Source: Gammaproteobacteria bacterium (GTDB lineage Bacteria; Pseudomonadota; Gammaproteobacteria; JAABTG01). Taken from it: a stretch of 64,000 nucleotides of DNA. Positions 25,390 through 59,233 of the stretch are shown one piece after another. The translations under genes were made by a program, and so were the position numbers. Numbering within the stretch: the stretch's first letter is position 1; each line of letters starts with the position of its first letter. The notes beneath the pieces were generated by a model. That model made no database searches and was not told where the DNA came from. It saw nothing but the letters and a program-made list of their open reading frames with translations. The stretch spans positions 420,116 through 484,115 of the forward strand of contig JAXHLS010000006.1 of the NCBI GenBank assembly GCA_034522055.1, given 5' to 3'.

Positions 25390-25548
25390 GGGCGCACATT
25401 CACTGCCACTTCTGCGGCCGTGAGTGCGGGCCCTTCCTGCGTACCGGCCCGCTTCATCGCGCCACCGCCGCCGCTGCGCTCGGAACAGTCACCCGACAGG
25501 GGCCACCAGGCGCCCGGGCTCAGCCCCCTTGAGCCGCCCGGCCACGAG

Positions 25549-27078
25549 ATGAGGAGAAACACATTGGCCATCAGTAAAGAACAAGAGGCGCAGATCCTGC
25601 GCTATCACTACGTCGAGAAGTGGCGGGTGGGCACCATTGCCAGCCAGTTGGGCGTACATCACAACGTCGTCAATCGGGTGCTCTCCCAGGCCGGCATGCC
25701 GAAGGTCGAGCGGACTGCGCAGGCGTCGATGATCGATCCTTATCTGCCGTTCATCACCGACACCCTGGCCCAGTTCCCCAGGCTCACCGCCAGCCGCCTC
25801 TACGGCATGGTGCGTGAACGGGGCTACCCCGGTGGCCCCGACCACTTCCGCCACCAGCTCGCCTGTTACCGGCCACGCCCCCAGCCCGAGGCCTTTCTGC
25901 GCCTGAAGACCCTCCCTGGCGAACAGAGCCAAGTCGACTGGGGCCATTTCGGCAAGCTCACCATCGGCCGCGCAACCCATGCCCTGATGGCCTTTGTCAT
26001 GGTGCTCAGCTACTCCCGGCGGATCTTTGTACGCTTCTTCCTCGGTGCCAAGATGGCCAACTTCCTGCGCGGCCACGAGGCGGCCTTCACCGCCTGGAAC
26101 GGCCTGCCCAAGGTCCTGCTCTACGACAACCTCAAAAGCGCCGTGCTGGAGCGCCAGGGTGAGGCCATCCGTTTCCATCCCACCTTGCTCGAGTTCGCCG
26201 CCCACTACCGCTTCGAGCCCCGTCCGGTGGCGGTGGCCCGGGGCAACGAGAAGGGGCGGGTGGAGCGCGCCATCCGTACGGTACGCGATAACTTCTGGGC
26301 GGCGCGCCAATGGACCGATCTCGATGATCTCAACGCCCAGGCCGAGGCCTGGTGCAACGGCTGGGCCATGGACCGGCCCTGTCCGGAGGACCGTGCCCTC
26401 TCGGTGCGCCAGGCCTTTGAGCAGGAGCCCCTGCTGGCGCTGCCCCATAACCCCTATCCCACCGACGAGCGGGTCGAGGTCCACATCGGCAAGACCCCTT
26501 ACGCGCGCTTCGAGCGCAACGACTACAGCGTGCCCCACACCCATGTGCGCCGCACCCTCACCGCTTCGGCCTCCCCCACCGAGGTGCGGATCCTCGACGG
26601 CGGGGACGTCATCGCCCGCCACCCGCGCAGCTACGACAAGGGCCGGCAGATCGAACAGCCGGAACACATCGAGGCGCTGGTCCAGATCAAACGCCAGGCC
26701 CGACATCATCGCGGCCAGGACCACCTGGCCCAGGCCGCACCGGCCAGCCGGCAGTTACTGGTCCAGGCCGCCGAGCGCGGCGACAACCTCGGCGCCATCA
26801 CCGCAGCCCTGCTGCGCCTCCTCGATGCCTACGGCGCCCCCGAGCTGGAAGCGGCCATCCAGGAGAGCCTGGCCCAGGGGGTGGCCCACCCCAATGGCGT
26901 GCGTATCGCCCTGCAGCGTAGACGCGAGGCGAGAAACCAGCCGCCCCGGGTGGGGGTACGCATCGACCACGCGCGTGCCAGAGGGCTGGTGGTACGCACC
27001 CATGATCTGGGCGGCTACGACGCCTTGCAGTCCACCCCGCCCGAAACCGAAGACGATACCCAGGAGGAGCCCAAATGA
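25549..27078 (+). CDS. istA: IS21 transposase IstA
   Basis: Met44 of ORF 25420..27078. N-terminal HTH ([34 protein letters not shown]), DDE core region, IS21-like organisation upstream of istB. Confidence 0.9.
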
Positions 27079-27848
27079 TCCCTAACGCATCCCTGAAAGA
27101 ACGGGCCACGGCCCTCAAGCTCCATGGCCTGCTGAGCCATTGGGAGGAGAGCGCCGACGCTGGCTGGGTCGAGTCCCTGATCCAGTGGGAAGAGGAGGAA
27201 CGCGCCCACCGCAGCCTCGAGCGGCGCATGAAAGGGGCGCGGCTGGGCCGCTTCAAACCCCTGGCCGACTTCGACTGGGGCTGGCCCAGCCGCTGCGACC
27301 GGGAACTGGTCAGTGAGCTGATGCGCCTCGACTTCCTCACCGAGGCGGTCAATATCATCCTGGTGGGACCCAACGGGGTGGGCAAATCCACCCTGGCCCG
27401 CAACATCGCCCATCAAGCGGTGCTGGCCGGCCACAGCGTCCTCTTTACCAGCGCCGGCCAGATGCTCAATGACTTGGCCGCCCAGGACGGCGACAGCGCC
27501 CTCAAGCGGCGCCTCGCCCGCTACGCCCGCCCTCAACTCCTGGTGGTCGACGAGGTGGGGTATCTCGCCTACTCCAATCGCCATGCCGATCTGCTGTTCG
27601 AGATCGTCTCCCGCCGCTACGAGGAGAAATCCACCCTGGTCACCACCAATCGGCCCTTCGCCGAATGGGGTGAAGTCTTTCCCAACGCCTCCTGCGTGGT
27701 CTCCCTCGTGGACCGGCTGGTACACCGCTCCGAGATCCTCACTATCGAAGGTGAATCCTACCGGCTCAAGGAGGCCAAGGAGCGACAGCAGCAACAGGCA
27801 CAGCGGCGCCGAGCCGCCGCCAAATCCAACAAAGGGGCCCAATCATGA
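27075..27848 (+). CDS. istB: IS21 helper ATPase IstB
   Basis: 257 aa. Walker [10 protein letters not shown], Walker [14 protein letters not shown] overlap with istA. Confidence 0.93.
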
Positions 27849-28648: not shown

Positions 28649-28745
28649 CGGAGTAGGTCGGCTGCTCCTAGCAGCCGACGGGGCTTGGGCGCGGGGTTCC
28701 GGGGGTTTCGGGGACAGTTTACTTGGGTTCCGGGGACCAGGTGAC

Positions 28746-29322: not shown

Positions 29323-29415
29323 GGTGTTCTGCGAATTACCTCGGCGCGAACGATAGTTTAGTTGATTTCGTGATTCCGGGGCAGCTTACTTGATCCGCTG
29401 TACGGCACGCTAAGA

Positions 29416-30790: not shown

Positions 30791-32709
30791 GTGCGTCCGT
30801 GGAGGCGCATTTTCCGCACGGTGAGAGTCCGTGTCGGGGTAAGCCAAGGCCCCGTAGTCGAAGGTAACTGCGTCGTCGCGAGGCGGGGTGGAGAGCAACC
30901 GGAGGCGAACTGGCGGTCCGTAGGATGACGAACTCGATTCGGCGGTACGGGACGGCGAGCCCGCTAGGAGAAGGTGAAGCCTGAAAATCATCGGATGCGC
31001 TGGGATTGGCGTGGAAAGCGACATTCGGGTCCCCTCCGTGGTTGGAGACGGAACGCTGGGAAGGAAATGCGAGAGAAGCGGGGAGACCTGACCGCCGTGG
31101 TGACGGTGGGCAGGAGTCAGAGCCTTCGTAGTACTGAACGGTTCTGCTGCGGTCATGGCGAGGTGCTGCGGAAACGCGGACCCAAGAGCTGGAGGGCGTC
31201 CTCCGCCTAAAACCGTGGGTGGTGCCGGGAAAGCGCGAAGAACAGAAATCGCGCCGAGGGAAGGGAGGCAGGAAGGTGGATGGGTGAAGTCTGGAGGAGG
31301 TGAGCGCGTATGCAAAGGGTCGAGAGTGTCTCGCAAGAGGCTAAGCCAGACTCGTCCAACCCGGTGGAATGGCCGTGGGTGGACCGCACGATCTGGACGG
31401 AGCGCATGTTGGCGGCGCTGGGTAACGGCGTCCAAGGGACGAAGTGGTTCAGTCTGATCGACAAGGTGCATCGCCCCCAGACCCTGGAACGGGCGTGGCA
31501 GGATGTGCGGGCCAACCGGGGTTCAGCGGGGGTGGATGGCCAGAGTGTGCAGCGTTTTGAGGCCCATGCCGAGCGGTATCTGGCGGAGCTGGGAGAGGCG
31601 CTGGGAAGTGGACGGTACCGACCGGATGCGGTGCGTCGGGTGGAGATTCCGAAGGGGACAGGGACGCGTCCCCTGGGCATTCCGACGGTGAAGGACCGGA
31701 TTGTGCAGGCGGCGATGAAGCGGGTGCTCGAGCCGATTTTCGAGCACCAGTTTTTGCCGATGAGTTACGGGTTTCGCCCGGGTCGCGGGTGCAAGGATGC
31801 GCTGCGGGAAGTGGATGGGCTGGTTCGGGAGGGCTACACCCATGTGGTGGATGCCGACCTGGCCCAGTACTTCGACACCATCCCGCACGAAGCGTTGATG
31901 GCCCGGGTCGAGGACCGGATCAGCGATGGTCGGATCCTCGACCTGCTGCGCGCCTGGTTGCGCCAGGACGTGGTGGCGGAGATAGCGCGCTGGACGCCGA
32001 CCCGGGGCTCGCCCCAAGGGGCGGTGATCAGTCCGTTACTCGCGAATCTGTACCTGCACGGGCTGGATGTACACATGACCCAGCGCGGCTATCGGATGGT
32101 TCGGTATGCTGACGACCTCGTGATCCTGTGTGCCAGTCCGGACGAAGCCCAGGAGGCGCTGCAGGAGTTGCGGCACTGGGTGGAGGCCAATGGTCTGCAA
32201 CTGCACCCGGAGAAGACCCGTGTGGGGGATTGCCGGCAGCCCGGGGAAGGCTTTGAGTTTCTCGGGTACCGGTTTGAAGCGGGACGGCGGTGGGTACGCA
32301 AGAAGAGCCGCAAGGCCCTTTACGACCGGGTCCGGGCCAAAACCCGGCGCAGTCGTGGGGATTCGCTGGCGCGGATTGTGGCCGACCTGAACCCGATGCT
32401 GCGTGGCTGGTTCGTGTATTTCCAGCACGCGCACCCGTGGACCTTTCCTCGCGTGGACGGTTTTGTCCGACGTCGATTACGGGCGCTGTTGCGCAAGCAG
32501 CAGAAGCGCCCGGGAGCGGGTCATTGTCAGTCCGACCATCTCCGCTGGCCGAACGCGTTCTTCGCTGCGGCTGGGCTTTTCACCATGACCGAAGCCCGGA
32601 CGTTGGCGAGCCAATCCCGATGAGGTAACCACCGACTGGAGAGCCGTGTGCGGGAGAACCGCATGCACGGTTCGGAGGGCGGGGAGGGTCACTCCTTCCC
32701 GACCCCTAT
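30791..32709 (+). mobile_element. Group II intron A1 (1,919 bp), intact
   Basis: 5' GTGCG at 30791. Domain V gagccgtgtgcgggagaaccgcatgcacggttc at 32641-32673. Ends ...CCCTAT at 32709. Boundaries confirmed by the empty site at 22950|22951. Confidence 0.9.
31310..32623 (+). CDS. Group II intron reverse transcriptase/maturase (no endonuclease domain evident)
   Basis: 437 aa. RT motifs PLGIPTVKDRIVQ, FRPGRG, DADLAQYFDTIPH, YADDLVIL. Maturase X-like C-terminus. Confidence 0.92.
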   Translation: MQRVESVSQEAKPDSSNPVEWPWVDRTIWTERMLAALGNGVQGTKWFSLIDKVHRPQTLERAWQDVRANRGSAGVDGQSVQRFEAHAERYLAELGEALGSGRYRPDAVRRVEIPKGTGTRPLGIPTVKDRIVQAAMKRVLEPIFEHQFLPMSYGFRPGRGCKDALREVDGLVREGYTHVVDADLAQYFDTIPHEALMARVEDRISDGRILDLLRAWLRQDVVAEIARWTPTRGSPQGAVISPLLANLYLHGLDVHMTQRGYRMVRYADDLVILCASPDEAQEALQELRHWVEANGLQLHPEKTRVGDCRQPGEGFEFLGYRFEAGRRWVRKKSRKALYDRVRAKTRRSRGDSLARIVADLNPMLRGWFVYFQHAHPWTFPRVDGFVRRRLRALLRKQQKRPGAGHCQSDHLRWPNAFFAAAGLFTMTEARTLASQSR

Positions 32710-33177: not shown

Positions 33178-34275
33178 ATGGTTGGACAAAAGAAGAAGGC
33201 GCTGATCACCGGCGTGACGGGCCAGGACGGGGCGTACCTGTCCGAGTTCCTGCTGGAGAAGGGTTACGAGGTCCATGGCATCAAGCGCCGGGCGTCGTCC
33301 TTCAATACGGACCGTATTGACCACCTGTACCAGGATCCTCACGAGACGGGTCGGCAGTTCGTGCTGCACTACGGAGACCTGACGGATTCCACCAACCTCA
33401 TTCGCATCGTCCAGGAGATCCAGCCGGACGAGATCTACAACCTGGGGGCCCAGAGCCACGTGGCGGTGTCTTTCGAGAGCCCGGAGTACACGGCGGACAG
33501 CGTGGGCCTGGGGGCGTTGCGCATGCTGGAGGCCATTCGCATCGCCGGGCTCACGGACAAGACCCGTTTCTACCAGGCCTCCACCTCGGAGCTCTACGGC
33601 CTGGTGCAGGAGGTGCCCCAGAAAGAGACCACGCCCTTCTACCCGCGCTCGCCCTACGCGGCGGCCAAGCTCTATGCCTACTGGATTACGGTGAACTACC
33701 GCGAGGCCTACGGCATGTATGCCTGCAACGGCATCCTGTTCAACCACGAATCACCCGTGCGCGGCGAGACCTTCGTCACCCGCAAGATCACCCGCGCCCT
33801 GGCCCGTATCCACCTGGGGCTGCAGGACACCCTGTACCTGGGGAACATGGATGCCCTGCGGGACTGGGGCCATGCCCGGGACTACGTGGAGATGCAGTGG
33901 TTGATGCTCCAGCAGGAGGTACCGGATGATTTCTGCATCGCCACCGGGGTGCAGTACTCGGTGCGCCAGTTCGTGGAGCGCGCCTACTCGCACCTGGGCA
34001 AGGCCATCCGCTGGGAAGGGCAGGGGGTGGACGAGAAGGGCTATGACACCGAGACGGGGGCGTGCATCGTGGCGGTGGACCCGCGCTACTTCCGCCCCAC
34101 GGAGGTGGAGACCCTACTGGGGGACCCCACCAAGGCCAGGGAGAAGCTGGGTTGGACGCCGCGCATCACCTTCGACGAGATGGTGACGGAGATGATGGAG
34201 AACGACCTGCAACTGGCAAAGCGCGATGCGCTGGTGAAGGAGGCGGGGTATCGGGCGTTCGATTACCACGAGTGA
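33178..34275 (+). CDS. gmd: GDP-mannose 4,6-dehydratase (copy 2, intact)
   Basis: 365 aa, near-identical protein to copy 1 with scattered nucleotide substitutions. Different upstream region. Confidence 0.93.
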
Positions 34276-35963: not shown

Positions 35964-36335
35964 GGGGGTGGTCCCCCTCCGCCCCTCACCCCGGCCCTCT
36001 CCCGGCGGGAGAGGGGGAGTAATCAGAGGGTTCTCTACGGGGGGATTACCGGGGCCGATGGGGCAGCCGGTGGGTCCGCTGCGCTTGACCCACCCTACGT
36101 TGCTGCGTGTTTTGGCGTCATGGGAAGGTCCCTTCTCCCTTGGGGAGAAGGACAGGATGAGGGGATGCTGGGCGGGGGGTGTAGGTCGGGCTTCAGCCCG
36201 ACAGCCCGCGGGTGGGATTTCCGGCCCGGCTCATGGTGTGTGCGCCCGGGTTGGATGTCGGGATGAATCCCGACCTACATTCGTGCCCTGGTCATGTTGG
36301 GGTTCGTTCCTCACCCCAACCTACGAGCTTGTCGA
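35964..36335. repeat. REP cluster, expanded paralogue of 34276-34500
   Basis: Same order of REP1/REP2/REP3/REP4 units, with extra GTAGGTCGGGCTTCAGCCCGACA-type hairpins. Confidence 0.7.
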
Positions 36336-36697: not shown

Positions 36698-37110
36698 TGC
36701 CCGATTTGCGTGTGGTCCTCGACACCAACGTGCTGGTGTCGGGACTGGCCTATCCGGGCAGCGTGCCGGGGCGTATCGTCGCCGCCTGGCGCCAGGGCGG
36801 CCTGGAGGTAGTGCTGTCCCATTACATACTCGACGAGCTGGCGAGGGTGCTGCCTCGGTTGTCCAGGGTCCGGATGTTGCAGGTGGAGGCCCGTGACTTG
36901 ACCGATAGTCTGATGTTCCTTGCCGATATCGTCGAGGCGCGAGGTATGCCTGATGAAAACCTGCGTGACCCTGCTGATCAACCAGTGCTACTCACCCTGG
37001 TGGCGGCGCGGGCTGACTACCTCGTAACCGGCGACAAGGATTTGCTGGCCCTGGCGGCCAAGTATCCCATTGTCACACCGGGAGAGTTCTGGAGACGCCA
37101 CGGAGAGTAA
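36697..37110 (+). CDS. PIN-family toxin (TIGR00305-like)
   Basis: 137 aa. RVVLDTNVLVSGLAYPGSVPGRIV...DPADQPVLLTLVAARADYLVTGDKDLL. Confidence 0.8.
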   Translation: MPDLRVVLDTNVLVSGLAYPGSVPGRIVAAWRQGGLEVVLSHYILDELARVLPRLSRVRMLQVEARDLTDSLMFLADIVEARGMPDENLRDPADQPVLLTLVAARADYLVTGDKDLLALAAKYPIVTPGEFWRRHGE

Positions 37111-37140
37111 GCGGGTCGGTTGGGTTCCGGGCGGTTCCGG

Positions 37141-37299
37141 GTAGAGTAGAGAGCAGGCCCTAACGCCCGTAGGTCCGGCTTAGCGGTTCCCGCCCCTTTC
37201 GTTTGGCGGTGCCTAAATAGCCGGGCCGTAGCCACCAAGGCCAGCCCTCCCTCATCAAACCGTGCATACGGTTCTCCCGTACACGGCTTTCCGATGTGC
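37141..37299 (-). mobile_element. Intron B 3'-terminal fragment (domains V-VI only), fused to a 58-nt gmd tail at 37300-37357
   Basis: Identical-type sequence to 41222-41380 (gtagagtagagagcagg...cggctttccgatgtgc), then caagcgcgatgcgctggtgaaggaggcgggg...tga. Confidence 0.85.
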
Positions 37300-38340: not shown

Positions 38341-38382
38341 CCCGGACTCGGGCTTCGGGAAAACCGGGGACAGCAGCGGCTT

Positions 38383-38805
38383 GGCCATGCCCGGGACTAC
38401 GTGGAGATGCAGTGGCTGATGCTCCAGCAGGAGGTGCCGGATGATTTCTGCATCGCCACCGGGGTGCAGTATTCGGTGCGCCAGTTCGTGGAGCGCGCCT
38501 ACTCGCACCTGGGCAAGGCCATCCGCTGGGAAGGGCAGGGGGTGGACGAGAAGGGCTATGACACCGAGACGGGGGCCTGCATCGTGGCGGTGGACCCGCG
38601 CTACTTCCGCCCCACACGGAAGTGGAGACCCTGCTGGGGGACCCCACCAAGGCGAAGGAGAAGCTGGGTTGGACGCCAAAGATTACCTTCGATGAGATGG
38701 TGACGCCCACTGTCGGCAGACATGATGGAAAACGACCTGCAACTGGCCAAGCGGGATGCGCTGGTGAAGGAGGCGGGGTATCGGGCGTTTGATTACCACG
38801 AGTGA
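38383..38805 (+). pseudogene. gmd 3' fragment (from ~codon 243), frameshifted
   Basis: [51 protein letters not shown]... with indels and the 13-nt insertion variant. Stop at 38803-38805. An fcl tail relic lies at 38877-38935. Confidence 0.9.
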
Positions 38806-39186
38806 GGGGGTGGCCCCCCCCCCTCACCCCGGCCCTCTCCCGGAGGGAGAGGGGGAGTAATCAGAAGGTTCTCTACGGAGGGTGCGTTCCACCTACCGGT
38901 GGTTTCTGGAGCACCAGGGGGATTTCAGGGGGTGAGGGGGTGGGGTGTCGGGATGAATCCCGACCTACATTCGTGCCGTAGGAACGCGCCGTGAGGGGGG
39001 TGTAGGTCGGGCTTCAGCCCGACATCCCGCCGGTGGGATTTCCGGCCCGGCTCATGGTGTGTGCGGCCGGGTTGGATGTCGGGATAAATCCCGACCTACA
39101 TCCGTGCCCTGGTCATGTTGGGGTTCGTTCCTCACCCCAACCTACGAGTTGTTCACGTACGGCACACAAGGTGCTACTTTAAGTGC

Positions 39187-39924: not shown

Positions 39925-40328
39925 GTAGAGTAGAGAGCAGGCCCTAACGCCCGTAGGTCCGGCTTAGCGGTTCCCGCCCCTTTCGTTTGGCGGTGCCTAA
40001 ATAGCCGGGCCCTAGCCACCAGGGCCAGCCCTCCCTCATCAAACCGTGCATACGGTTCTCCCGTACACGGCTTTCCGATGTGCTTCACGCCAAGGCATGC
40101 GCTGAGCGCCAGCCTGCTTTATGGGATAGCTTGAGTAATCCAAGGGCGTCGTGGAGGTGGGCGTAGGGATGTAGATGGCTGTAAAAACCCGCGCATTATG
40201 TCACGCAATACATAATGCGCGGGTTTTTACAGCCAGCTACACCGCTAACACGCGACACTACAAAGGTGTACGAGCAACTCCTTTGGCGGGACTCTAACCC
40301 GCTAGTTAATCAGCCTGTTACGGCATAC
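39925..40328 (-). mobile_element. Intron B remnant (B4): 3' end and 5' end retained, ~1.6 kb internal deletion
   Basis: 39925-40169 matches 41222-41466, and ~40250-40328 matches the last ~80 nt before 43213. Its flanks reconstitute the empty site at 33059-33086. Confidence 0.85.
40170..40241. mobile_element. 72-bp palindromic miniature element made of two copies of one IS21 terminus
   Basis: TGTAGATGGCTGTAAAAACCCGCGCATTATGT-cacgcaat-ACATAATGCGCGGGTTTTTACAGCCAGCTACA. The arms match the IS21 end seen at 24798 and 56963. Confidence 0.8.
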
Positions 40329-40367: not shown

Positions 40368-40901
<534 letters not shown>

Positions 40902-40905
<4 letters not shown>

Positions 40906-41147
40906 GATTCGCCGGTGAACAGGCGCTCGATGGCTTCATCACCCATGGTATCGAAGTCATCCGGAACGGCGATTTGGCCGGCCAGGAAACCCAGGCGCCG
41001 AACGTTTCGTGGCTCGGGGGCATCGACGGCCATTACCTTGACCAGGGGTTTGCCCGCTTTGGCGATGATGAAGGGCTCGCCCTTGGCGGCTTGATCCAAC
41101 AGCCGTGATAGATGGGTCTTGGCCTCGTGGACGTTGACGATGCGCAT
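40902..41147 (-). CDS. Phd/YefM-type antitoxin
   Basis: 81 aa. MRIVNVHEAKTHLSRLLDQAAKGEPFIIAKAGKPLVKVM. Confidence 0.82.
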
Positions 41148-41221: not shown

Positions 41222-43213
41222 GTAGAGTAGAGAGCAGGCCCTAACGCCCGTAGGTCCGGCTTAGCGGTTCCCGCCCCTTTCGTTTGGCGGTGCCTAAATA
41301 GCCGGGCCCTAGCCACCAGGGCCAGCCCTCCCTCATCAAACCGTGCATACGGTTCTCCCGTACACGGCTTTCCGATGTGCTTCACGCCAAGGCATGCGCT
41401 GAGCGCCAGCCTGCTTTGTGGGATAGCTTGAGTAATCCTAGGGCGTCGTGGAGGTGGGCGTAGGGAAAGCGTTCGTAACCGCGCGTGCGAGTGCGCACTT
41501 TGTGACGCCGCCGCAGTTGGGTACGCACGCGTTCCTCAGTGAACCACCGGACGCGTCCGAAAGCCTTGGTGCAGTTGCCGTAGTGGAAGTAGCCCGGCCA
41601 GCCGCGTAGCACTTGGTTCACTTCCGTGATCATACGCGGCATCGGCACCGGGGTGCGGCGCCGCGCGGTGAGTTCCTTGATGCGCGCCTTGATCCTTCGT
41701 TCGGCGCGGCGGCTCGGCTCAACGTGAGGGTAGCCGTTGCCGGTTCGTCGGCTGCGTGCCCATTTGATGCTGAAGCCAAGAAAGTCGAACGCCTGTCGGC
41801 GGGCATCCACCACGTGGGTTTTCTCCCGGTTGAGCGTCAACTCCAGGCGTGTCAGCACCGTCTCAAGCACCGCCATGGCCGGCGCGGTGTCCCCACGACA
41901 CAGAATCACGGCATCGTCAGCGTAACGCACGAGGCGCGCCCCTAACCGTCGTTCCAAGTCGTGCCGTTCCCAAATCCGGTCCAGCAGATGTAGATAAAGA
42001 TTGGCCAGCAGCGGGGAAACAACCCCGCCTTGCGGCGTCCCTTTCCGATTCCCTTTACCGCCACTCGGGCGTTGCTTGCCTCGCCCATCCTCTTCGATGA
42101 CCGGGGCCTTGAGCCATTGCTGAATGAGGGCGAGGACGCCCCCATCGGCAAGGCGCTCGGCAACCACGGCCATGAGCTTGGCGTGCGGGATCGTATCGAA
42201 ATACTTCGATAGATCCGCATCGATGATTTGGGTCTTTCCCTGAAACAGACCGTCGGTGACGGCCTTCACCGCATCATGGGCCGAACGCTGCGGGCGAAAT
42301 CCATAGGAGTGCTCGCAGAAATCAGCCTCGAAGATCGGCTCCACCACCAGCTTGAGCGCCATCTGTACGATCCGATCCCGGATTGTGGGGATCCCCAATG
42401 GGCGCTCACTGCCATCCGGCTTGGGTATCCAGACCCGACGCACGCCGTCCGCGCCGTACGTCTTCTGCTCCAGTTCCCGTTGCAATTCCGCCAAGTAGGC
42501 GTCTCTTCCGACCCCCGCCTCGATGGCCTCACAGGTCACACCATCGATTCCTGGCGCGCCCCGATTGGACCTGACACGATCATAGGCGTGACCGAGAGTG
42601 TCTGCCCGATAGACCTTGTCATACAAGGCGTAGAAGCGAAACGCCGGCTCTTGCTTGGCCTTGACGTAGAGCTTCCTCTGCAGCGTCCTGATCTTTTCCG
42701 GAGTTGTTAGCGACATCGCCGCAATCTCCTGACCCTCTGCGTTTCGGTTGCGTGCACAAAGTAGGGTCCCTTCCCTCAGGTCGGGTTATGTTGTCCCAGA
42801 CCCTCAATCGGTACTATGAACCCCTCCGACTCCCACGACGGTCGATGACGACTTCGGACTGGCCTTATACGCCACCGTCGGCAGTTCTCACCTGCCACCG
42901 CCGCGGGCCTCCCGCACTGGGACCAATCAACTTCCACCACATGCCACCCGTACTACCCCGGAAGACTCAGCGGGACGCTCTCGTCGTCTCCTCCCACCAA
43001 CAGCGGCCTTCCCCGACTGTCCACCGGGTCGGCATCTTCACTTTGTTCACGAGGCTACATCTCGGTTCGCTTGCGCTGCGGCCTGCGGTTTTGCATCTAC
43101 GTAACTTACGACCCCCGGTTACCCGGACGCCGCTCCGCGACACTACAAAGGTGTACGAGCAACTCCTTTGGCGGGACTCTAACCCGCTAGTTAATCAGCC
43201 TGTTACGGCATAC
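41222..43213 (-). mobile_element. Group II intron B1 (1,992 bp), intact
   Basis: Minus-strand 5' end GTATGCCGTAACAGG at 43213, domain V at 41370-41338, 3' end ...CTCTACTCTAC at 41222. Boundaries fixed by filled/empty site comparison (B4 versus 33059-33086). Confidence 0.88.
41382..42716 (-). CDS. Group II intron reverse transcriptase/maturase (family B)
   Basis: 444 aa. PLGIPTIRDRIVQ, FRPQRSAHDA, DADLSKYFDTIPH, YADDAVILC and maturase region. Confidence 0.92.
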   Translation of the reverse strand: MSLTTPEKIRTLQRKLYVKAKQEPAFRFYALYDKVYRADTLGHAYDRVRSNRGAPGIDGVTCEAIEAGVGRDAYLAELQRELEQKTYGADGVRRVWIPKPDGSERPLGIPTIRDRIVQMALKLVVEPIFEADFCEHSYGFRPQRSAHDAVKAVTDGLFQGKTQIIDADLSKYFDTIPHAKLMAVVAERLADGGVLALIQQWLKAPVIEEDGRGKQRPSGGKGNRKGTPQGGVVSPLLANLYLHLLDRIWERHDLERRLGARLVRYADDAVILCRGDTAPAMAVLETVLTRLELTLNREKTHVVDARRQAFDFLGFSIKWARSRRTGNGYPHVEPSRRAERRIKARIKELTARRRTPVPMPRMITEVNQVLRGWPGYFHYGNCTKAFGRVRWFTEERVRTQLRRRHKVRTRTRGYERFPYAHLHDALGLLKLSHKAGWRSAHALA

Positions 43214-43250
43214 GGACAGCTTACTTAATTCGCTGTGCGGCACGCCAAGA

Positions 43251-43483
43251 GCGGCGCCTGCATCGTGGCGGTGGACCCGCGCTACTTCCGCCCCACGGCG
43301 GTGGAGACCTTGCTGGGGGACCCGACCAGGGCGAAGGAGAAGTTGGGGTGGACGCCGCGTATCACCTTCGACGAGATGGTGACCCCCCTGTCAGCGGAGA
43401 TGATGGAGAACGACCTGCAGCTGGCGAAGCGGGATGCGCTGGTGAAGGAGGCAGGGTATCGGGCGTTTGATTATCACGAGTGA
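43251..43483 (+). pseudogene. gmd tail, R1-type, with an in-frame 12-nt insertion
   Basis: [75 protein letters not shown]. Junction motif at 43214-43250. Confidence 0.9.
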
Positions 43484-43860
43484 GCGTGTGGCCCCCCCCC
43501 TCACCCCGGGTTTCTCCCCCCGAGGGGGAGAGGGAGTATTTGTTGGGCTTTCCCCCGTCACCCCGGCCCTCTCCCGGAGGGAGAGGGGGAGTAATCAGAG
43601 GGTTCTCTACGGGGGGATTACCGGGGTCGATGGGACAGCCGGCGGGTCCGCTGCGCTTGACCCGCCCTACGTTGCTGCGCGCTTTGGCGTCATGGGAAGG
43701 TCCCTTCTCCCATGGGGAGAAGGACAGGATGAGGGGATGCTGGGCGGGGGGTGTAGGTCGGGCTTCAGCCCGACAGCCCGCGGGTGGTTTCGACCCGGCC
43801 CGTGGTGCGTGCGGTGGGCTTTAATGTCGGGATGAATCCCGACCTCCCGGCTGTGGGTCC
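43484..43860. repeat. REP cluster (REP1 x2, REP2, REP3-type hairpins)
   Basis: cctcaccccggccctctcccggagggagaggggg, ggcgggtccgctgcgcttgacccgcc and gtaggtcgggcttcagcccgaca read directly. Confidence 0.7.
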
Positions 43861-43933: not shown

Positions 43934-44341
43934 TCAGGGGTTGAATGGGTTCAGCGTAGCCACGCCTGTCGGTGTGAAGTGTCGGGTGTTGCGAGTCACC
44001 ACGGTGAGGCCGTGCTCCAGGGCCGTTGCCGCGATCAACAGGTCGGCGCTTTGGTTACCGATGGCGGCGCTGAGTTGTCCCCAGCGGCGGGCGACGGGGA
44101 TATCCACCGCAAGTACCCGATCGGCGTATAGGTCGAGCACGGTGTCGAGCCAGCGGGCGAGGGTGATGGCGAAGGCGGGGTTGCGGCCTCGTTGCTGCAC
44201 AATGCCCCGCTCTATCTCGCCGATGGTGACCACGCTGAGGAACAGGTCCGGGGTCCGTTGATTCGCGATCCACGCCACCAGATGCGGATTCCGGTGCTGC
44301 TTGCGCAGTTCCGACAGGACCACGGTGTCCAGAAGGTGCAT
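43934..44341 (-). CDS. vapC: VapC/FitB-like PIN toxin
   Basis: 135 aa. HLLDTVVLSELRKQHRNPHLVAW...IAATALEHGLTVVTRNTRHF. Confidence 0.88.
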   Translation of the reverse strand: MHLLDTVVLSELRKQHRNPHLVAWIANQRTPDLFLSVVTIGEIERGIVQQRGRNPAFAITLARWLDTVLDLYADRVLAVDIPVARRWGQLSAAIGNQSADLLIAATALEHGLTVVTRNTRHFTPTGVATLNPFNP

Positions 44342-44601
44342 CAGAGCTCGATGGCGCGGGGTCGCAAGGGGATGCGGTCGAAGTCGAGGTCGTCCTGGGG
44401 CACGGTGAGCAGTAGTTCGCCGAAGGTGGGCGCTGCGGTTTTTCCCTGTCGTCGCAATCGCTCGTACTCATCGGCGGCGATGACCACCACAGCCGGTTTG
44501 CCTCGTCGGGTCACCCGTTGGGGGTCACCCTTGAGCGCCCTGTCAACCAGTGCACTGAAACGATTCTTGGCGTCATGTAGGGACCATTCCGGATCAGACA
44601 T
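44341..44601 (-). CDS. Phd/YefM-type antitoxin
   Basis: 86 aa. WSLHDAKNRFSALVDRALKGDPQRVTRRGKPAVVVIAADEYERL. Confidence 0.82.
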   Translation of the reverse strand: MSDPEWSLHDAKNRFSALVDRALKGDPQRVTRRGKPAVVVIAADEYERLRRQGKTAAPTFGELLLTVPQDDLDFDRIPLRPRAIEL

Positions 44602-44719
44602 TTGAGATTCCTGGCTAGATAAGATGGCTAGATTAATGGACTGTTTCCGCTCTAGTCAATCGGGCACTGTCGGGGGTTCCGGGGACCGTTTACTTAATTC
44701 GCTGTACGGCACGCCAAGA

Positions 44720-44952
44720 CTGGGCCCGCATGGTGATGGCGGACCCGCGCTACTTCCGCCCCACGGAGGTGGAGACCCTGCTGGGGGACTCCACCAAGGC
44801 CAAGGAGAAGCCGGGGTGGACGCCGCGTATCACCTTCGACGAAATGGTGGCGCCCACTGTCGGCAGAGCTGATGGAAAACGACCTGCAACTGGCCAAGCG
44901 CGATGCGCTGGTGAAAGAGGCGGGGTACCGGGCGTTTGATTATCACGAGTGA
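44720..44952 (+). pseudogene. gmd tail, R1-type, 13-nt insertion (frameshift), followed by gmd-fcl spacer and a 61-nt fcl tail (45006-45066)
   Basis: [40 protein letters not shown] then a shifted frame. tgaggcgcgccgggctgc... matches the spacer at 20842-20914. Confidence 0.9.
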
Positions 44953-45140
44953 GGCGCGCCGGGCTGCACAATGACCGGGTCGGTTCGCGCCCGAGGGCGC
45001 TCCTAGGGGCGGGTGCGAGCCACCCACCAGTGGCTTCTGGAGCACCAGGGAGATTACCGCGGGTAGGGCATTCTCTTCCGGTCCTGGTGTAAAATCTGAG
45101 TCAGAAGAAAATCGCCAGCCAAGGGCCGGAGCAGAATGCC

Positions 45141-46219: not shown

Positions 46220-46261
46220 ACGCACGAACGGGCAAACCAGCAAACCAGGGACACAAACCAG

Positions 46262-47715
46262 GTAGAGTAGAGAGCAGGCCCTAACGCCCGTAGGTCCGGC
46301 TTAGCGGTTCCCGCCCCTTTCGTTTGGCGGTGCCTAAATAGCCGGGCCGTAGCCACCAGGGCCAGCCCTCCCTCATCAAACCGTGCATACGGTTCTCCCG
46401 TACACGGCTTTCCGATGTGCTTCACGCCAAGGCATGCGCTGAGCGCCAGCCTGCTTTATGGGATAGCTTGAGTAATCCAAGGGCGTCGTGGAGGTGGGCG
46501 TAGGGAAAGCGTTCGTAACCGCGCGTGCGAGTGCGCACTTTGTGACGCCGCCGCAGTTGGGTACGCACGCGTTCCTCAGTGAACCACCGGACGCGTCCGA
46601 AAGCCTTGGTGCAGTTACCGTAGTGGAAGTAGCCCGACCAGCCGCGTAGCACTTGGTTGACTTCCGTGATCATACGCGGCAGGCGTGCGGGATCGTATCG
46701 AAATACTTCGATAGATCCGCATCGATGATTTGGGTCTTTCCCTGAAACAGGCCGTCGGTGACGGCCTTCACCGCATCATGGGCCGAGCGCTGCGGGCGAA
46801 ATCCATAGGAGTGCTCGCAGAAATCAGCCTCGAAGATCGCCTCCACCACCAGCTTGAGCGCCATCTGTACGATCCGATCCCGGTTTGTGGGGATCCCCAA
46901 TGGGCGCTCACTGCCATCCGGCTTGGGTATCCAGACCCGACGCACGCCGTCCGCGCCGTACGTCTTCTGCTCCAGTTCCCGTTGCAATTCCGCCAAGTAG
47001 GCGTCTCTTCCGACCCCCGCCTCGATGGCCTCACAGGTCACACCATCGATTCCTGGCGCGCCCCGATTGGACCTGACACGATCATAGGCGTGACCGAGAG
47101 TGTCTGCCCGATAGACCTCGTCATACAAGGCGTAGAAGCGAAACGCCGGCTCTTGCTTGGCCTTGACGTAGAGCTTCCTCTGCAGCGTCCTGATCTTTTC
47201 CGGAGTTGTTAGCGACATCGCCGCAATCTCCTGACCCTCTGCGTTTCGGTTGCGTGCACAAAGTAGGGTCCCTTCCCTCAGGTCGGGTTATGTTGTCCCA
47301 GACCCTCAATCGGTACTATGAACCCCTCCGACTCCCACGACGGTCGATGACGACTTCGGACTGGCCTTATACGCCACCGTCGGCAGTTCTCACCTGCCAC
47401 CGCCGCGGGCCTCCCGCACTGGGACCAATCAACTTCCACCACATGCCACCCGTACTACCCCGGAAGACTCAGCGGGACGCTCTCGTCGTCTCCTCCCACC
47501 AACAGCGGCCTTCCCCGACTGTCCACCGGGTCGGCATCTTCACTTTGTTCACGAGGCTACATCTCGGTTCGCTTGCGCTGCGGCCTGCGGTTTTGCATCT
47601 ACGTAACTTACGACCCCCGGTTACCCGGACGCCGCTCCGCGACACTACAAAGGTGTACGAGCAACTCCTTTGGCGGGACTCTAACCCGCTAGTTAATCAG
47701 CCTGTTACGGCATAC
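46262..47715 (-). mobile_element. Group II intron B2 with a 538-bp internal deletion in the RT gene
   Basis: Same ends as B1. RT split into ORFs 46670..47218 (N-terminal 182 aa) and 46422..46673 (C-terminal 83 aa). Deletion junction at ~46675-46685. Confidence 0.88.
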
Positions 47716-47752
47716 GGACAGCTTACTTAATTCGCTGTGCGGCACGCCAAGA

Positions 47753-47986
47753 GCGGCGCCTGCATCGTGGCGGTGGACCCGCGCTACTTCCGCCCCACGG
47801 CGGTGGAGACCTTGCTGGGGGACCCGACCAGGGCGAAGGAGAAGTTGGGGTGGACGCCGCGTATCACCTTCGACGAAATGGTGGCGCCCACTGTCGGCAG
47901 AGCTGATGGAAAACGACCTGCAACTGGCCAAGCGCGATGCGCTGGTGAAAGAGGCGGGGTACCGGGCGTTTGATTATCACGAGTGA
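47753..47986 (+). pseudogene. gmd tail, R1-type, recombinant (5' like 43.2 kb copy, 3' like 44.8 kb copy)
   Basis: Identical to 43214-43375 up to ...cgtatcaccttcgacga, then identical to 44840-45000 including the 13-nt insertion and spacer. Confidence 0.88.
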
Positions 47987-48046
47987 GGCGCGCCGGGCTG
48001 CACAATGACCGGGTCGGTTCGCGCCCAAGGGCGCTCGGCAAACGGG

Positions 48047-48439
48047 TTACGGTGGCGTGGCAAGGTCGGTGTGGATGAAATCCTGCCCCTTATAGAGCAG
48101 CGGGGCGCCCTCTACTTTCGCGAGGGCGTAAGCAAAGCAGTCACCGTAGTTCAGACCGGCCGGATGGCGGCCCTTGCCGAACTCCCGGTAGGCCCGCCGC
48201 GCCAGGTTGCCCTGGTCCACGTCAACGGGAATGAGTTCGATGTGGGCCTTGCTCAGGAACAGGTCGAGGTCCCGTGCCCCCTCCATGCCAAAGCGGGCTT
48301 CTATGACGATGGCGGTCTCCAGGAAGTTGGCCACCGACATGACGCACGGCGCCGCAGCCTCTATTACCGTTACGAACGTCCGGCGCTCAGGTTCGTTCAT
48401 GAGGATCGCGATTAGTGCGGAGCTGTCGAGGACAATCAT
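48047..48439 (-). CDS. vapC: VapC PIN-domain toxin
   Basis: 130 aa. IVLDSSALIAILMNEPE...GLNYGDCFAYALAKVEGAPLLYKGQDF. Confidence 0.88.
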   Translation of the reverse strand: MIVLDSSALIAILMNEPERRTFVTVIEAAAPCVMSVANFLETAIVIEARFGMEGARDLDLFLSKAHIELIPVDVDQGNLARRAYREFGKGRHPAGLNYGDCFAYALAKVEGAPLLYKGQDFIHTDLATPP

Positions 48440-48690
48440 CGCGGGATGCCGCGGGAATCGTAGTCCAGGATCTCTTCGGGCGAACGGTCGTCCAGGACCG
48501 GCAGGTTCGCACAGTGCAGGGCGATTTCGTCCAGCTCATCTGCCAGCCGCGGCCCGGCGGGTTGGCGCTTGAGGCGCTTGAGCTGCTCGCGCAGGGCATC
48601 AGTGACTGCCCGGGTCTTCGTTTGGCCGGTAAGCCGTGCAAGCTCGTCGGCCAAGCGCTCGGCATCTGGGTTTCGAATATTTAGCGCCAT
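48436..48690 (-). CDS. vapB: VapB-type antitoxin
   Basis: Met22 of ORF 48436..48753. MALNIRNPDAERLADELARLTGQTKTRAVTDALREQLKRL. Confidence 0.8.
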   Translation of the reverse strand: MALNIRNPDAERLADELARLTGQTKTRAVTDALREQLKRLKRQPAGPRLADELDEIALHCANLPVLDDRSPEEILDYDSRGIPR

Positions 48691-49323
48691 GGTCTCGGTG
48701 TGTAGCTGTGTTGAAAAATGTAAGCATACTACACAGGAGGGGCCCGGGCCCAATGCAGGCTACGGGATGCGCTGGTGAAGGAGGCGGGGTATCGGGGACA
48801 GGGTATCGGGGTCAGCAGCGGCTTGGCAATGCCGCACATTCTAGCGGGTGGGAATCCCGCCCGGGTAACCGCTAGCCACGGGCCCGGTATCGAGCCTTGC
48901 AGTCAGTCCGGTGACGGGCTGGTTGATGCGTAGGTACGAAAGCAGGCGAGGTGCAAGGGTAACGGGTGAAGCCGACCTTGAAGGTGTGGAGCTCCGAAAA
49001 GTTCGTCGGTGAGTGCCGATGGGTTTGTCCCACCAGCAGGCAACAGCCGTCATGCGCCCTGGCAAGCATGACGGGCACTCCCCGGAGTCCGAGGCCGTAT
49101 CGAGCCTGACATTGCGAATGTGCGGTAACCAAGGAGATCCCATCATCGGTGTGCAGGAGGTGCGCACCCGTGGACAAGCGATAACAAGCGAGGAAGCGGG
49201 CGGTGTTGATGGGAAGTCGGAGGCACCCATAGTAGCGAGGAGTCCCGGTAATCCGGGAGGAGCCAAGGGGTGTCGGCTTGAGATAACGGGAGAGGGGCAA
49301 CACGGCCCTACGCTGAGAGGACT

Positions 49324-50765
49324 ATGCCCGTGAGCACACGACTCGAACGTTTCACACAAAAGGCGCGTGCCGAGCCGCAGTTGCGGTTCACGTCCCTGAT
49401 GGGGATGCTGTTCGATCCCGAGGGGCTGCACGCCAGCTTCGAGCGCCAGGACGGAAGTAAGGCGCCCGGAGTGGATGGGGTAAGGAAGGAGACGTATCTA
49501 CAGGGACTGGACGAGCGGATAGCAGACCTGTCGGCCCGCCTGCGCCGGCTGGGCTACCGGCCCAAACCGGCCCGGCGAACCTACATCCCCAAAGGGGACG
49601 GTCGCTACCGCCCGCTGGGTGTCCCCAGCTTCGAGGATCGGTTGGTGCAGGACCGGCTGAGCCAAATCCTGCAAGCCATCTGGGAACCGGAATTCCGCGA
49701 CTGCTCTTAGGCCACTGACGAGAATTAGCTTGTCACTCTGATAGCCGCATCGAGCTTATCCGTAGTAGTCGCCAGATCGAAAGATGGCAAGTTAATTTCG
49801 ATCAGGCTCCTTACGGCTTCCGTCCGGGCCGAAGCGCCCACGACGCCCTGCGCCGGATGGCGGAAGTCATCACGAACGAGCAGACGCAAAGGGTGGTGGA
49901 GGCCGACATCAAAGGCTTCTTTGACCACGTCAGCCACGACCACCTGATGCGGTTTCTGGCCCACCGGATAGGCGATCCGAATTTTCTGCGGATCATCCGC
50001 CGATTTCTCAAGGCAGGGATCATGGAAGATGGGGTGTTCACAGCCAGCGACGAAGGCACCCCGCAAGGCGGGCTGGTGTCCCCCGTGCTGGCGAACATCT
50101 ACCTCCACTATGTACTGGACCTGTGGTTCGAGGCGCGCTATGCCCGGCAGTGTCAGGGCAAGGCGTACCTCATCCGCTATGCGGACGACTATATCGCCTG
50201 CTTCCAGTACGAAGAGGACGCCAAGGGCTTTCATCAAGCGATGAAAGCGCGCTTGAGCGCATTCGACCTGGAAGTCGAGCCCAGCAAGACGGCCATCCTG
50301 CGCTTCGGCAGCACCGCCCTGCGTATCCCTGCGCGGGAGGGAGAGCCGAAGACCTTCAGCTTTCTCGGCTTCACCCACTACGTGGGCCGCAGCCGGAAAG
50401 GCCGGTTTGTCGTTGGGCGCAAGACCGACGGCAAGCGACAGCGCAAGAAGCTCAAGGCGCTCAATGCCAAGCTGAAGGCCATGCGCAGCAAAGGAGGGGC
50501 GGCGATGATTGCCTTCCTGCGGCGGCACCTACGGGGCCATATCCAGTATTACGGCGTCAGCGGCAACAGCCGGAGCGTGGCGAGCTATGTCTACTTCGCC
50601 TCCGGCTACCTGTTCAAGTGGCTGAACCGCCGTAGCCAGCGACGCTCGCTGACCTGGAAACGCTTCGGCGAGGCCATCAGTCCGTGGCTGCCGACCGCCT
50701 GCATCGTCCACATCCTCTACCCCGTGCCGAAGTGGAAGACTCAAGCTGGGAGCCGGATGGTGTAA
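49324..50765 (+). pseudogene. Group II intron RT/maturase (family C) split by a ~100-bp insertion
   Basis: ORF 49324..49710 (..PLGVPSFEDRLVQ..EFRDCS*) and ORF 49857..50765. YGFRPGRSAHDA resumes at 49812 in another frame. YADDYIACF present. Confidence 0.85.
49708..49811. mobile_element. AT-rich ~100-bp miniature insertion with imperfect terminal inverted repeats
   Basis: gacgagaattagcttgtc near the left end versus reverse complement gatcgaaattaacttgcc near the right end (12 of 18 positions match). Interrupts the conserved RT motif. Confidence 0.45.
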
Positions 50766-50936
50766 CTCTCCAAGTCCGGTTCTGCGAGGAGCCGGGGACG
50801 AACCGACGCATGGCCGAGATATTGTGGCACCGCCGGGAAACCAGGCGGCAAACAGAGAACACAAACTTCGGCCTAACCGTCGGCAAGGAACCGGCTTACT
50901 CTCCGTTTACTTAATTCGCTGTACGGCACGCCAAGA

Positions 50937-51161
50937 CTGGGGCCTGCATGGTGGTGGCGGACCCGCGCTATTTCCATCCCACGGAGGTGCAGACCCTGCT
51001 GGGGGACCCCACCAAGGCCAGAGAGAAGTTGGGCTGGACGCCAAAGATCACCTTCGACCAGATGGTGGCGCCCACTGTCGGCAGAGATGATGGAGAACGA
51101 CTTGCAACTGGCCAAGCGGGATGCGCTGGTTAAGGAAGGGGGGTATCGGGCGTTTGATTAA
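50937..51161 (+). pseudogene. gmd tail, R1-type, 13-nt insertion variant
   Basis: [42 protein letters not shown] then a shifted frame. Junction motif at 50904-50936. TAA at 51159-51161. Confidence 0.9.
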
Positions 51162-51745: not shown

Positions 51746-52300
51746 TCATTCGCAAGAATCGCCGAGGGGGCTCGGCTCCTAGTGCGTCCGTGGAGGCGCA
51801 TTTTCTGCACGGTGAGAGTCCGTGTCGGGGTAAGCCAAGGCCCCGTAGTCGAAGGTAACTGCGTCGTCGCGAGGCGGGGTGGAGAGCAACCGGAGGCGAA
51901 CTGGCGGTCCGTAGGATGACGAACTCGATTCGGCGGTACGGGACGGCGAGCCCGCTAGGAGAAGGTGAAGCCTGAAAATCATCGGATGCGCTGGGATTGG
52001 CGTGGAAAGCGACATTCGGGTCCCCTCCGTGGTTGGAGACGGAACGCTGGGAAGGAAATGCGAGAGAAGCGGGGAGACCTGACCGCCGTGGTGACGGTGG
52101 GCAGGAGTCAGAGCCTTCGTAGTACTGAACGGTTCTGCTGCGGTCATGGCGAGGTGCTGCGGAAACGCGGACCCAAGAGCTGGAGGGCGTCCTCCGCCTA
52201 AAACCGTGGGTGGTGCCGGGAAAGCGCGAAGAACAGAAATCGCGCCGAGGGAAGGGAGGCAGGAAGGTGGATGGGTGAAGTCCGGAGGAGGTGAGCGCGT

Positions 52301-53614: not shown

Positions 53615-53739
53615 GTAAATCCGCGCATAAATGGCGAAGGTCGCAGTCGCGGGTTCGGGCGGCGTGACTCGGCCTCGGCGCGGATAGGTCGCCTCGAGTC
53701 AAGCCCGGTCACGCCGCCGGGGTGGGCTTAAGGGTCGGC

Positions 53740-53916: not shown

Positions 53917-53918
53917 GG

Positions 53919-59102: not shown

Positions 59103-59233
59103 GGACAGTTTACCTAACCTGTCAGGGGCGGCCGAGCGAAGGGCTCGGGAGAAGCTGGGTTGGACACCGAGGATCACCTATGACGAGCGGGTGACCCGAC
59201 TGTCAGCGTCCGGGTTGACGCTGTTTTCATGCA

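Follow-up and report, generated by a model that had tools for sequence, protein, structure and literature searches.

The subject of this analysis is a junction motif of about 35 nucleotides (nt) that recurs in a 64-kb stretch of a Gammaproteobacteria bacterium genome (contig JAXHLS010000006.1; the whole stretch is referred to as the window), each time next to a fragment of the gene gmd. With slightly more belief than doubt, we read the motif as an inherited pseudogene junction that doubles as a homing site, on both strands, for IIC-like group II introns. On this view, a single ancestral pseudogene block would have had the motif as its constant 5' boundary; in it the 3' tail of gmd, cut near codon 288-290, had been joined to ~20-45 nt of foreign sequence, and the gmd-fcl spacer and the 5' portion of fcl came next. 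This block would have been copied and would have decayed among toxin-antitoxin (TA) modules, three group II introns and IS21 at the far end of an O-antigen/exopolysaccharide-type cluster, so that all copies would share one breakpoint because they share an ancestor and not because recombination recurred there. Two IIC-like introns that have no endonuclease would home into the left part of the motif, one on each strand. Intron C would use the top-strand GGGACA as its intron-binding sequence (IBS1) and insert at GGGGACA^G, and intron B would take a small hairpin plus CUGUCC on the bottom strand as its 5' exon and insert at CUGUCC^CCGG, 5 nt away. The reading rests on the copies themselves, on marks of their common ancestry, on exactly placed intron ends and on covarying pairing between IBS1 and the exon-binding sequence (EBS1) of the introns.

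The original prediction, made from the sequence alone, had described a repeated motif of ~35 nt, and five plus-strand copies of its 30-nt core, TTACTTAATTCGCTGTRCGGCACGCCAAGA, were found at 29386 (3 mismatches), 43221, 44690, 47723 and 50907. No copy is expected by chance, and 100 shuffles gave no match. A gmd 3' fragment directly follows each of the five copies, just as had been claimed. The tails had been said to begin at codon ~303; alignment to the resident gmd instead places the start of clear homology at ~codon 290, with in-frame, ungapped similarity traceable to ~codon 287-288 (CAC GCC AAG.. vs GAC ACC GAG..), and only the degenerate copy at 59103 starts near codon 303. Within the motif an in-frame TAA is followed by a 20-residue reading continuous with the gmd tail frame, and since the motif reads through in frame after this stop, its last 10-19 nt may be diverged gmd. 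The view that the motif is not gmd sequence accordingly holds for about GGACAGYTTACTTAATTC, the clearly foreign portion, and not for its whole length, as the final 10 nt, possibly ~19 nt, are plausibly diverged gmd coding sequence. Leftward, the conserved block reaches ~10 nt farther, as GGGGTTCCGG, in the intron-free copies and in the contig of a related strain (L008, described below). The left flanks vary among copies in the manner predicted, consisting of TA operons, intron B or intron C. Both of the predicted degenerate copies were also recovered, at 28708-28730 without a gmd tail and at 59103-59140; the latter looks like a deletion derivative of motif and tail. Table 1 gives the coordinates of these and the other features.

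Table 1. Features of the window that bear on the junction motif (window coordinates).
Feature	Position	Strand	Remarks
Motif copy 44683 with left extension	44673..44719	+	GGGGTTCCGG GGACCG TTTACTTAATTCGCTGTACGGCACGCCAAGA; intron-free
Motif copy 43214	43214..43250	+	intron B adjoins left end
Motif copy 47716	47716..47752	+	recent duplicate of copy 43214; internally deleted intron B adjoins
Motif copy 50905	50905..50936	+	is the 3' exon of intron C
5' exon half matching copy 50905	48787-48814		GGGGACA, with 14-nt tandem duplication
Diverged motif copy 29379	29379..29415	+	3 core mismatches, 1-nt deletion in GGGG-CAG; intron-free
Degenerate 'motif-2'	59103..59140	+	GGACAGTTTACCTAACCTGTCAGGGG..; intron B adjoins; joins gmd near codon 303
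Truncated degenerate copy	28708..28741	+	TCGGGGACAGTTTACTT (28708-28730 = TCGGGGACAGTTTACTTGGG), then second GGGTTCCGGGGAC; without gmd tail
gmd tail after copy 43214	43251..43484	+	in frame, 12-nt insertion
Other gmd tails	29416-29626, 44720-44954, 47753-47988, 50937-51160		last three with 13-nt frameshifting insertion
Tail insertion	~43370-43385, 44850-44865, 47885-47900, 51070-51085, 38690-38705, 24460-24475		GCCCACTGTCGGC, between ..ATGGTG and GAGATGATGG; 12 nt and in frame at 43214
Intron B, full copy	41222..43213	-	5' GUAUGCCG ... CUCUACUCUAC 3'; protein gene 41382-42716
Intron B, other copies	46262-47715, 57111-59102		first internally deleted
Intron B, fragments	39925-40328, 37141-37299
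Intron C	48815..50904	+	5' GCAGCGGCUUGG ... CUUACUCUCC 3'; EBS1 loop UUUGUCCCA; protein gene frameshifted
Intron C, 5' fragment	38373-38391		fused directly to gmd codon ~231
Intron A	30791..32709	+	inside fcl pseudogene; GUGCG 5' end
Intron A, second copy	51782-57067		apparently interrupted by IS21
Intact gmd-fcl pair	~19762-21856
Intact resident gmd	33178..34275	+	reads straight through breakpoint
Phd/PIN TA operon adjoining copy 44683	43934..44601	-
Three other unrelated TA operons	28746-29322, 40519-41147, 48047-48753	-	same position and orientation
IS21 (istA/istB)	25420..27848 (wider limits 25420-28159)	+
IS21, inverted copy	53919-56340 (wider limits 53602-56400)

Several marks point to common descent of the copies. 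To the right of the motif, at least 215 nt are homologous in all five copies, and two pairs extend for at least 1.3 kb. Copies 43214 and 47716 are 98.5% identical over 1.3 kb, while copies 29379 and 50905 fall within one duplicated block made up of tail, a DUF4258/DUF2283 TA module, an fcl fragment and intron A; in the block at 29379 that TA module is deleted and another inserted. A 12-13-nt insertion is common to four of the motif-bearing tails and to two motif-less gmd fragments that read normally through the breakpoint. Tail polymorphisms are distributed as a mosaic among copies, which suggests gene conversion between them. The tails of copies 43214 and 29379 are the only ones in frame (2/5), and that of copy 44683 carries a 1-nt deletion in addition to its 13-nt insertion. 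At the other end, fcl is cut at one place (..CAGCCCATGAAC, ~codon 122) at 29792 and 51745 and at position 6970 of L023, a contig from a more distant lineage, with three different sequences after the cut; this is a second conserved breakpoint, bounding the same unit as the motif. Two short gmd ORFs, P0121 and P0126, were considered as instances of the shared breakpoint and proved to be frameshifted gmd instead. Taken together, the right-side homology, the shared insertions and deletions and the two plain duplicate pairs best fit an alternative already entertained in the original prediction, namely that the motif is the end of one amplified ancestral unit. Simple segmental duplication would leave the motif always inside a longer block with homology on either side, and such homology is seen to the right of every copy (at least 215 nt) but not to the left. 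We infer that the copies multiplied by segmental duplication together with unequal or intron-mediated homologous recombination.

Of the three intron families present, here named A, B and C, two are tied to the motif. The proteins of introns A and B find their best matches in the GsI-IIC reverse transcriptase (RT) 6AR1 (7e-58 and 3e-66, respectively) and in E.r. IIC 7UIM; these IIC RTs outscore the IIB protein (6ME0) and the IIA protein LtrA in what is a ranking among solved structures of few classes, not a phylogeny. Both proteins contain RVT_1 and GIIM domains only, with no endonuclease domain detected. Among Rfam families, RF02005 and RF00029 match introns B and C, and RF00029 matches A. Named relatives of the intron proteins come from Thiohalocapsa, Sedimenticola, Halorhodospira and Methylohalobius. 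Group IIC introns are known to recognise IBS1 plus a stem-loop (PMC1702495).

The ends of intron B (GUAUG...CUCUAC) are set by four 5' and five 3' junctions, and ten copies of a relative from other genomes, with 77% protein identity, have identical start and end bases. Its EBS1, GGACAG (intron nt 192-197, in the domain 1 (D1) loop GUGGACAGU), is the exact complement of the 5' exon CUGUCC, and in the relatives a compensatory change is seen (GGUCAG vs CUGACC). Junctions, relatives and pairing all agree with the proposed location of intron B exactly at CCGG^GGACAG. No complement to exon positions -7 to -13 that could act as EBS2 was found within the first 700 nt of the intron. The 5' exon is thereby recognised by B through 6 bp of IBS1-EBS1 pairing without EBS2, with covariation in the relatives of both B and C. 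From sequence, this covarying pairing appears to fix both insertion points. The 3' exons of B begin CCGG or CTGG; in the copy at 46262-47715, the 3' flank is CTGGTTTG.. where CCGGAACC is expected, a mismatch that marks this copy as recombinant. A 5-bp hairpin precedes the B insertion point and overlaps IBS1 in the occupied copies (at copy 43214 the minus strand reads ACAGC-N11-GCUGU with IBS1 CUGUCC); it is no better than in shuffled sequences. Elsewhere, relatives of intron B lie at unrelated sites after hairpins, and one of them (L011) is adjoined by a Y1 transposase, possibly a REP-associated tyrosine transposase (RAYT). The motif was also considered as the 5' end of a minus-strand intron (GUGCCG..). 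This was rejected, as the four B copies and ten relatives start with GUAUGCCG and empty sites keep the motif.

The ends of intron C, G48815...C50904, were defined from relatives with 96% and 76% protein identity, in all of which the 3' exon starts with G. The boundary that had been placed between intron C and the motif is real, yet the last intron base is 50904, one base later than proposed, so that the intron ends before GTTTACTT and not before CGTTTACTT. Its site is GGGGACA^GTTTACTT, on the strand opposite the B site. The pairs of EBS1 and IBS1 are UGUCCC/GGGACA in intron C, UGUCCA/UGGACA in L026 and UGACCC/GGGUCA in L027-L031. Upstream on the top strand there is a stem of 4-5 bp, GGTTC/GGAC(C), which does not exceed shuffles; relatives of C elsewhere occur at unrelated sites after clear hairpins. 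A GCTTACT shared with the end of intron C had prompted the idea that a plus-strand intron finishes within the motif, which would then be its domain VI. This was rejected, since every relative places the end of C at 50904 and so makes the motif the 3' exon of C. Both of the intron-free copies, at 44683 and 29379, carry mismatched IBS1s for B and C, those at 44683 being CGGUCC (B-type) and GGGACC (C-type) with one mismatch each.

Several side observations concern the introns. Intron C starts with GCAGCGG and its relatives with GUGCGG, while the 96% relative, L026, also starts with GCAGCGG and has an intact 445-aa open reading frame (ORF). The RT gene of C is apparently split, with the RT domain in 49857-50765 and a candidate N-terminal piece in 49324-49710; this copy is probably immobile and perhaps non-splicing. 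On three metagenome contigs (L030, L032 and L034), a C-type intron runs at its 3' end (..CUUACUCUCC) straight into the GUGCGGCUUGG with which another copy begins; tandem copies, the junction of an intron circle or faulty assembly could each account for this. Short tandem repeats adjoin intron ends at 57068-57110, 46230-46261, 37110-37140 and 48787-48814. On the 3' side of B (minus strand) they read (CCGGAACC)3-CTGTCC-CCGGAACC and CTGGTTTG-TGTCC-(CTGGTTTG)2, and before C lies a 14-nt tandem duplication (GGGTATCGGGGACA/GGGTATCGGGGTCA); they look like repeated exon target sequence.

Searches for the motif were extended, as had been proposed, to other genomes and metagenomes. Among GTDB representative genomes only one chance match was found, inside a histidine-kinase gene, and viral contigs gave none. 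A scan of JGI metagenomes gave one true match, L008, from a strain 93-97% identical to the window, in which two TA modules are linked by the extended motif together with ~34 nt of tail and a 'motif-2'; array content differs between this strain and the window. A protein search with the motif-plus-tail peptide retrieved three further contigs, L023, L024 and L025, from a lineage ~85% identical. These contain the motif (35/37), tail, spacer and the 5' part of fcl in a different context, after a truncated asmA-like gene (an assignment made from reading the translation), and the unit ends at the same fcl breakpoint (..CCCATGAAC) as two copies in the window. In Rfam, no intron was found at the right end of L023, where the contig ends 176 nt past the breakpoint. 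The possibility that the motif is found only in this window can thus be set aside, as the unit occurs in at least two other metagenomic lineages. Compared with L023, L024 and L025 differ at 3 motif positions while the left flank is 99.6% identical, a polymorphism that argues against strict constraint on the motif. An excess of motif conservation was considered and found not significant (35/37 relative to L023 with flanks 85% identical, P about 0.07).

Four observations weigh against an inherited junction. First, four unrelated minus-strand TA operons abut the motif edge, with antitoxin starts 56-81 nt away. Second, two TA modules separated by 5.7 kb in the window are joined in L008 through the motif and only ~34 nt of tail. 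Third, the core is more conserved than the tails, four copies having 0-1/30 core differences next to tails that are 84-94% identical (6-16% different); the excess reaches only weak significance (P about 0.02-0.07), and gene conversion could account for it. Fourth, left homology among copies ends at GGGGTTCCGG or at an intron end, a few bases from the intron insertion points, in all window copies as well as in L008 and L023, and pure duplication does not predict that homology should stop there. Derivation of the left part of the motif from the fcl codons GPGDNF (CCGGGGACAATTT at 21423, 14/17 matches) or from the end of the gmd tail (GGGGTATCGGG) was tried, and both matches were too short to decide. 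A role as promoter or terminator was dropped, since no sigma-70-like site was found at the motif and the only stem, at 44675-44697, is a marginal one of five pairs followed by a T-rich run.

The stop in left homology leads to an unlikely alternative, in which the introns themselves made the junction. Introns B and C would first have inserted at several GGGGACAG-type sites, recombination between intron copies would have joined motif and tail to new partners, and later intron loss would have left the boundary as an exon scar. The constancy of the motif would then come from its being the insertion point, and the variability of the cargo from its being the other exon. The coincidence of the left homology limit with the B and C insertion points speaks for this, as do the recombinant B copy at 46262-47715 and the 5' fragment of C fused to gmd. 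The CCGGGGACAG-like sites in the array lie only on the plus strand, those at 33066, 35284 and 38364 being among the ones at the left edge of other duplicated blocks, and the four adjacent TA operons are oriented like intron B. A comparable role in cassette formation has been proposed for IIC-attC introns, according to the citation of Leon and Roy 2009 within PMC3001079. Yet precise intron loss would be required at 44683, at 29379, in L008 and in L023. The other copies of intron B have no co-oriented TA operons after them, relatives of B and C elsewhere occupy unrelated hairpin sites without such arrays, and the L023 junction has mismatched IBS1s (GTGACA) with no intron nearby. A part of this scheme may nevertheless be kept within the inherited-junction reading: recombination between dispersed intron copies would explain the differing left cargo, and the stop of left homology at the insertion points, the four minus-strand TA operons at this edge, the mismatched 3' flank of B, the stub of C on gmd and the plus-strand CCGGGGACAG sites fit such recombination, short of proof, as the means by which left cargo is shuffled.

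It is doubtful that the motif is a site at which cassettes are joined outside an integron. In one version, to which we give little credence, TA modules that lack an integrase, with or without a gmd tail of their own, would accrete in the 3' region of gmd much as e14 does in icd or as cis-mobilizable and integrative and conjugative elements (CIME/ICE) do; the motif would be the module-side arm beside the crossover, with a recombinase acting in trans from elsewhere. The motif with its GGGGTTCCGGGGACAG left part would then be a junction for adding and swapping TA modules, and for carrying them between strains, at a decayed gmd-fcl locus, a role we consider improbable, and the joiner would be either some recombinase acting on a site of at most 70 nt or, with similarly low probability, pairs of IIC-like introns with reverse-complementary EBS1s. 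The motif-led tails do share one orientation, TA cargo of 1-3 kb separates them, and most have an intact gmd to their left; the window, L008 and L023 agree on the boundary, and array content varies between strains that are 93-97% identical. The motif and ~34 nt of gmd core between two TA modules in L008 resemble an attP-type site, and an independent arrangement of gmd tail, TA module and fcl fragments exists in an unrelated polysaccharide locus (L021). Against these stand the lack of any tyrosine, serine or DDE recombinase beyond IS21 and a possible IS4-type among 60 ORFs of the 64-kb window, and likewise of a recombinase in the 6 kb that precede the motif in L023. Frameshifts in three tails out of five (44683, 47716 and 50905) would keep these from restoring an intact gmd as the tail of an e14/icd-type element does. 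Many gmd fragments have other breakpoints (q656, q763, q891, q1010 and q1239), a gmd 5' end of attL type is missing, the motif core does not recur at the far ends of the TA modules, and neither inverted-repeat architecture nor constancy of the motif (3 positions differ between L023 and L024 despite the 99.6% identical left flank) is seen.

The proposal that the motif is an attC-like recombination site, as in an integron cassette array or a cluster of attC sites lacking integrase (CALIN), is close to refuted. In its favour are the richness in TA modules, as in chromosomal integrons, an IIC-type intron opposite the repeated arm, as for IIC-attC introns (PMC3001079), and the resemblance of ACTTAAT to an RYYYAAC core. 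When both strands of the five copies were folded in search of conserved imperfect hairpins, as had been proposed, the best stem had at most 5 bp with an 11-nt loop (z -1.5 to +1.3), and it is lost in copies 44683 and 50905. None of the five forms an attC-type imperfect palindrome of ~57-141 nt with extrahelical bases. ACTTAAT matches RYYYAAC with one mismatch, and by eye no GTTRRRY partner lies downstream within attC distance; the core-like heptamers in L008, also judged by eye, are in the wrong order. An inverted-repeat scan of 28-60 kb found no palindrome family (50-140 nt) between TA modules, only the REPIN-like pairs. Pfam scans of the 60 ORFs returned no Phage_integrase or Recombinase domain, no intI and no tyrosine or serine recombinase, the DDE transposases being those of IS21 and the possible IS4-type. 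Modules lie on both strands, and the motif is polymorphic between L023 and L024. With a weak hairpin, no palindrome family and no promoter-like site, the analogy with attC fails.

Turning to the locus itself, the first 19 kb of the window (1-19 kb) hold a polysaccharide cluster with a low-GC core, comprising an RmlA-type nucleotidyltransferase, an RmlB-type dehydratase, a flippase, Wzy, glycosyltransferases and five sulfotransferases. The region 8000-16000 has 43-45% GC as opposed to 60-67% for the genome, encodes Wzy, glycosyltransferases, a GH5 cellulase-family protein and several sulfotransferases, and is probably the horizontally acquired variable part of a sulfated polysaccharide locus. 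The array that follows, at 28164-59736, contains at least 13 type II TA operons in ~32 kb, on both strands and mostly unrelated to one another. The types are BrnTA (two), DUF433/DUF5615, Phd/PIN (four), HigBA-like, MerR/DUF433, VapBC, DUF4258/DUF2283 and Phd/YoeB. They are interleaved with the second intact gmd, a dozen or so gmd fragments whose 5' limits vary, and fcl fragments, together with REPIN-like palindromes, the three group II intron families and two inverted copies of IS21. The IS21 copies bracket most of the array, the second apparently sitting inside the second copy of intron A. One TA module, at 29820-30664, lies inside fcl in the window and beside the motif in L008. The REPIN-like elements are inverted GTAGGTCGGG-N-CCCGAC hairpin pairs found downstream of several gmd and fcl copies (32978-33059, 36180-36279, 38939-39103 and 43755-43845). 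On a Logan contig (L009, 1883-6338), the sigma-54 activator of the window (62043-63425) is followed by a contractile-tail-like cluster with Pvc16_N, phage sheath and T4 gp19-like tube proteins. In L021 (7940-10058), from an unrelated low-GC organism, a polysaccharide cluster is followed by a gmd tail (starting ~10 codons before IVAVDPRYF), next by a Phd/PIN_3 TA module unrelated to those of the window, and finally by fcl fragments. Gene debris with TA modules at the gmd-fcl end of polysaccharide clusters may be a recurrent pattern.

If the ordinary reading is right, one accidental junction became a multi-copy landmark through duplication, gene conversion and transfer between lineages, and two retroelements with nearly reverse-complementary guide sequences settled in it, one from each strand. 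The results could be of use in annotating intron-rich gammaproteobacterial genomes, and they provide exact homing sites along with natural resistant variants for two uncharacterised IIC-like introns. Should cassettes be joined at the motif after all, TA modules would be assembled and exchanged without an integron, and the locus would offer a natural test of whether IIC introns build cassettes. If pairs of introns, by recombination between their copies and subsequent loss, stitched cargo to a constant arm, the locus would exemplify in nature the way in which introns have been proposed to form integron cassettes.

The array can be compared with four known systems, beginning with the segmental duplications and debris found at O-antigen or capsule loci. 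As at such loci, it lies at the distal end of an rmlA/rmlB-flippase-Wzy-glycosyltransferase-sulfotransferase cluster and consists of repeated, decayed gmd-fcl copies, for which L021 is analogous. Unlike them, it has an unusual density of TA operons and one junction conserved across lineages.

Some integrative elements duplicate the target gene's 3' end, examples being e14 and phage 21 in icd, islands in tRNA genes, and CIME/ICE at fda in Streptococcus thermophilus. The array resembles these in having gene 3' ends in the same orientation with a common 5' limit, a shared non-gene sequence before each copy and cargo between copies. It differs in that neither the window nor the 6 kb upstream in L023 yielded an integrase, most tails are out of frame, the limits of many further gmd fragments lie elsewhere, and the units carry the gmd-fcl spacer and pieces of fcl, which makes them operon debris and not a dedicated attP.

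With integrons and their IIC-attC introns (PMC3001079; PMC2727003), the locus shares a repeated junction that separates small cassettes of varying content (TA modules in many cases), an intron opposite the repeated arm and a plausible reassortment of flanks by introns. The attC architecture is not present and the window yielded no integron integrase; the repeated arm consists of a gene fragment of 215-270 nt, not of a palindrome, and modules occur on both strands. The likeness to attC-specific introns suggested in the original prediction survives for the introns, with the IIC-like proteins of A and B, the lack of EBS2 in B and a small hairpin with IBS1 opposite the tails, and falls for the attC architecture.

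The fourth comparison is with the sites of group IIC introns, such as those of the B.h.I1 type (PMC1702495) and of the E.r. IIC intron on a DNA hairpin (PMC10190682). In keeping with these, the A and B proteins score best against IIC RTs and show no detected endonuclease domain, D1 of intron B has no EBS2 complement, and the sites are intergenic or non-coding, with the relatives of B and C lying after clear hairpins; at the motif, insertion of B may likewise follow a hairpin whose 3' arm overlaps IBS1, although the stem does not exceed shuffles. The introns of the window depart from that pattern in their IBS1-EBS1 pairing of 6 bp as against the typical 3-4 bp, in a ribozyme part of ~650 nt that exceeds the minimal IIC, in a weak motif hairpin (5 bp) that is not a terminator, and in 5' ends that read GUAUG (B) and GCAGCG (C) instead of GUGYG.

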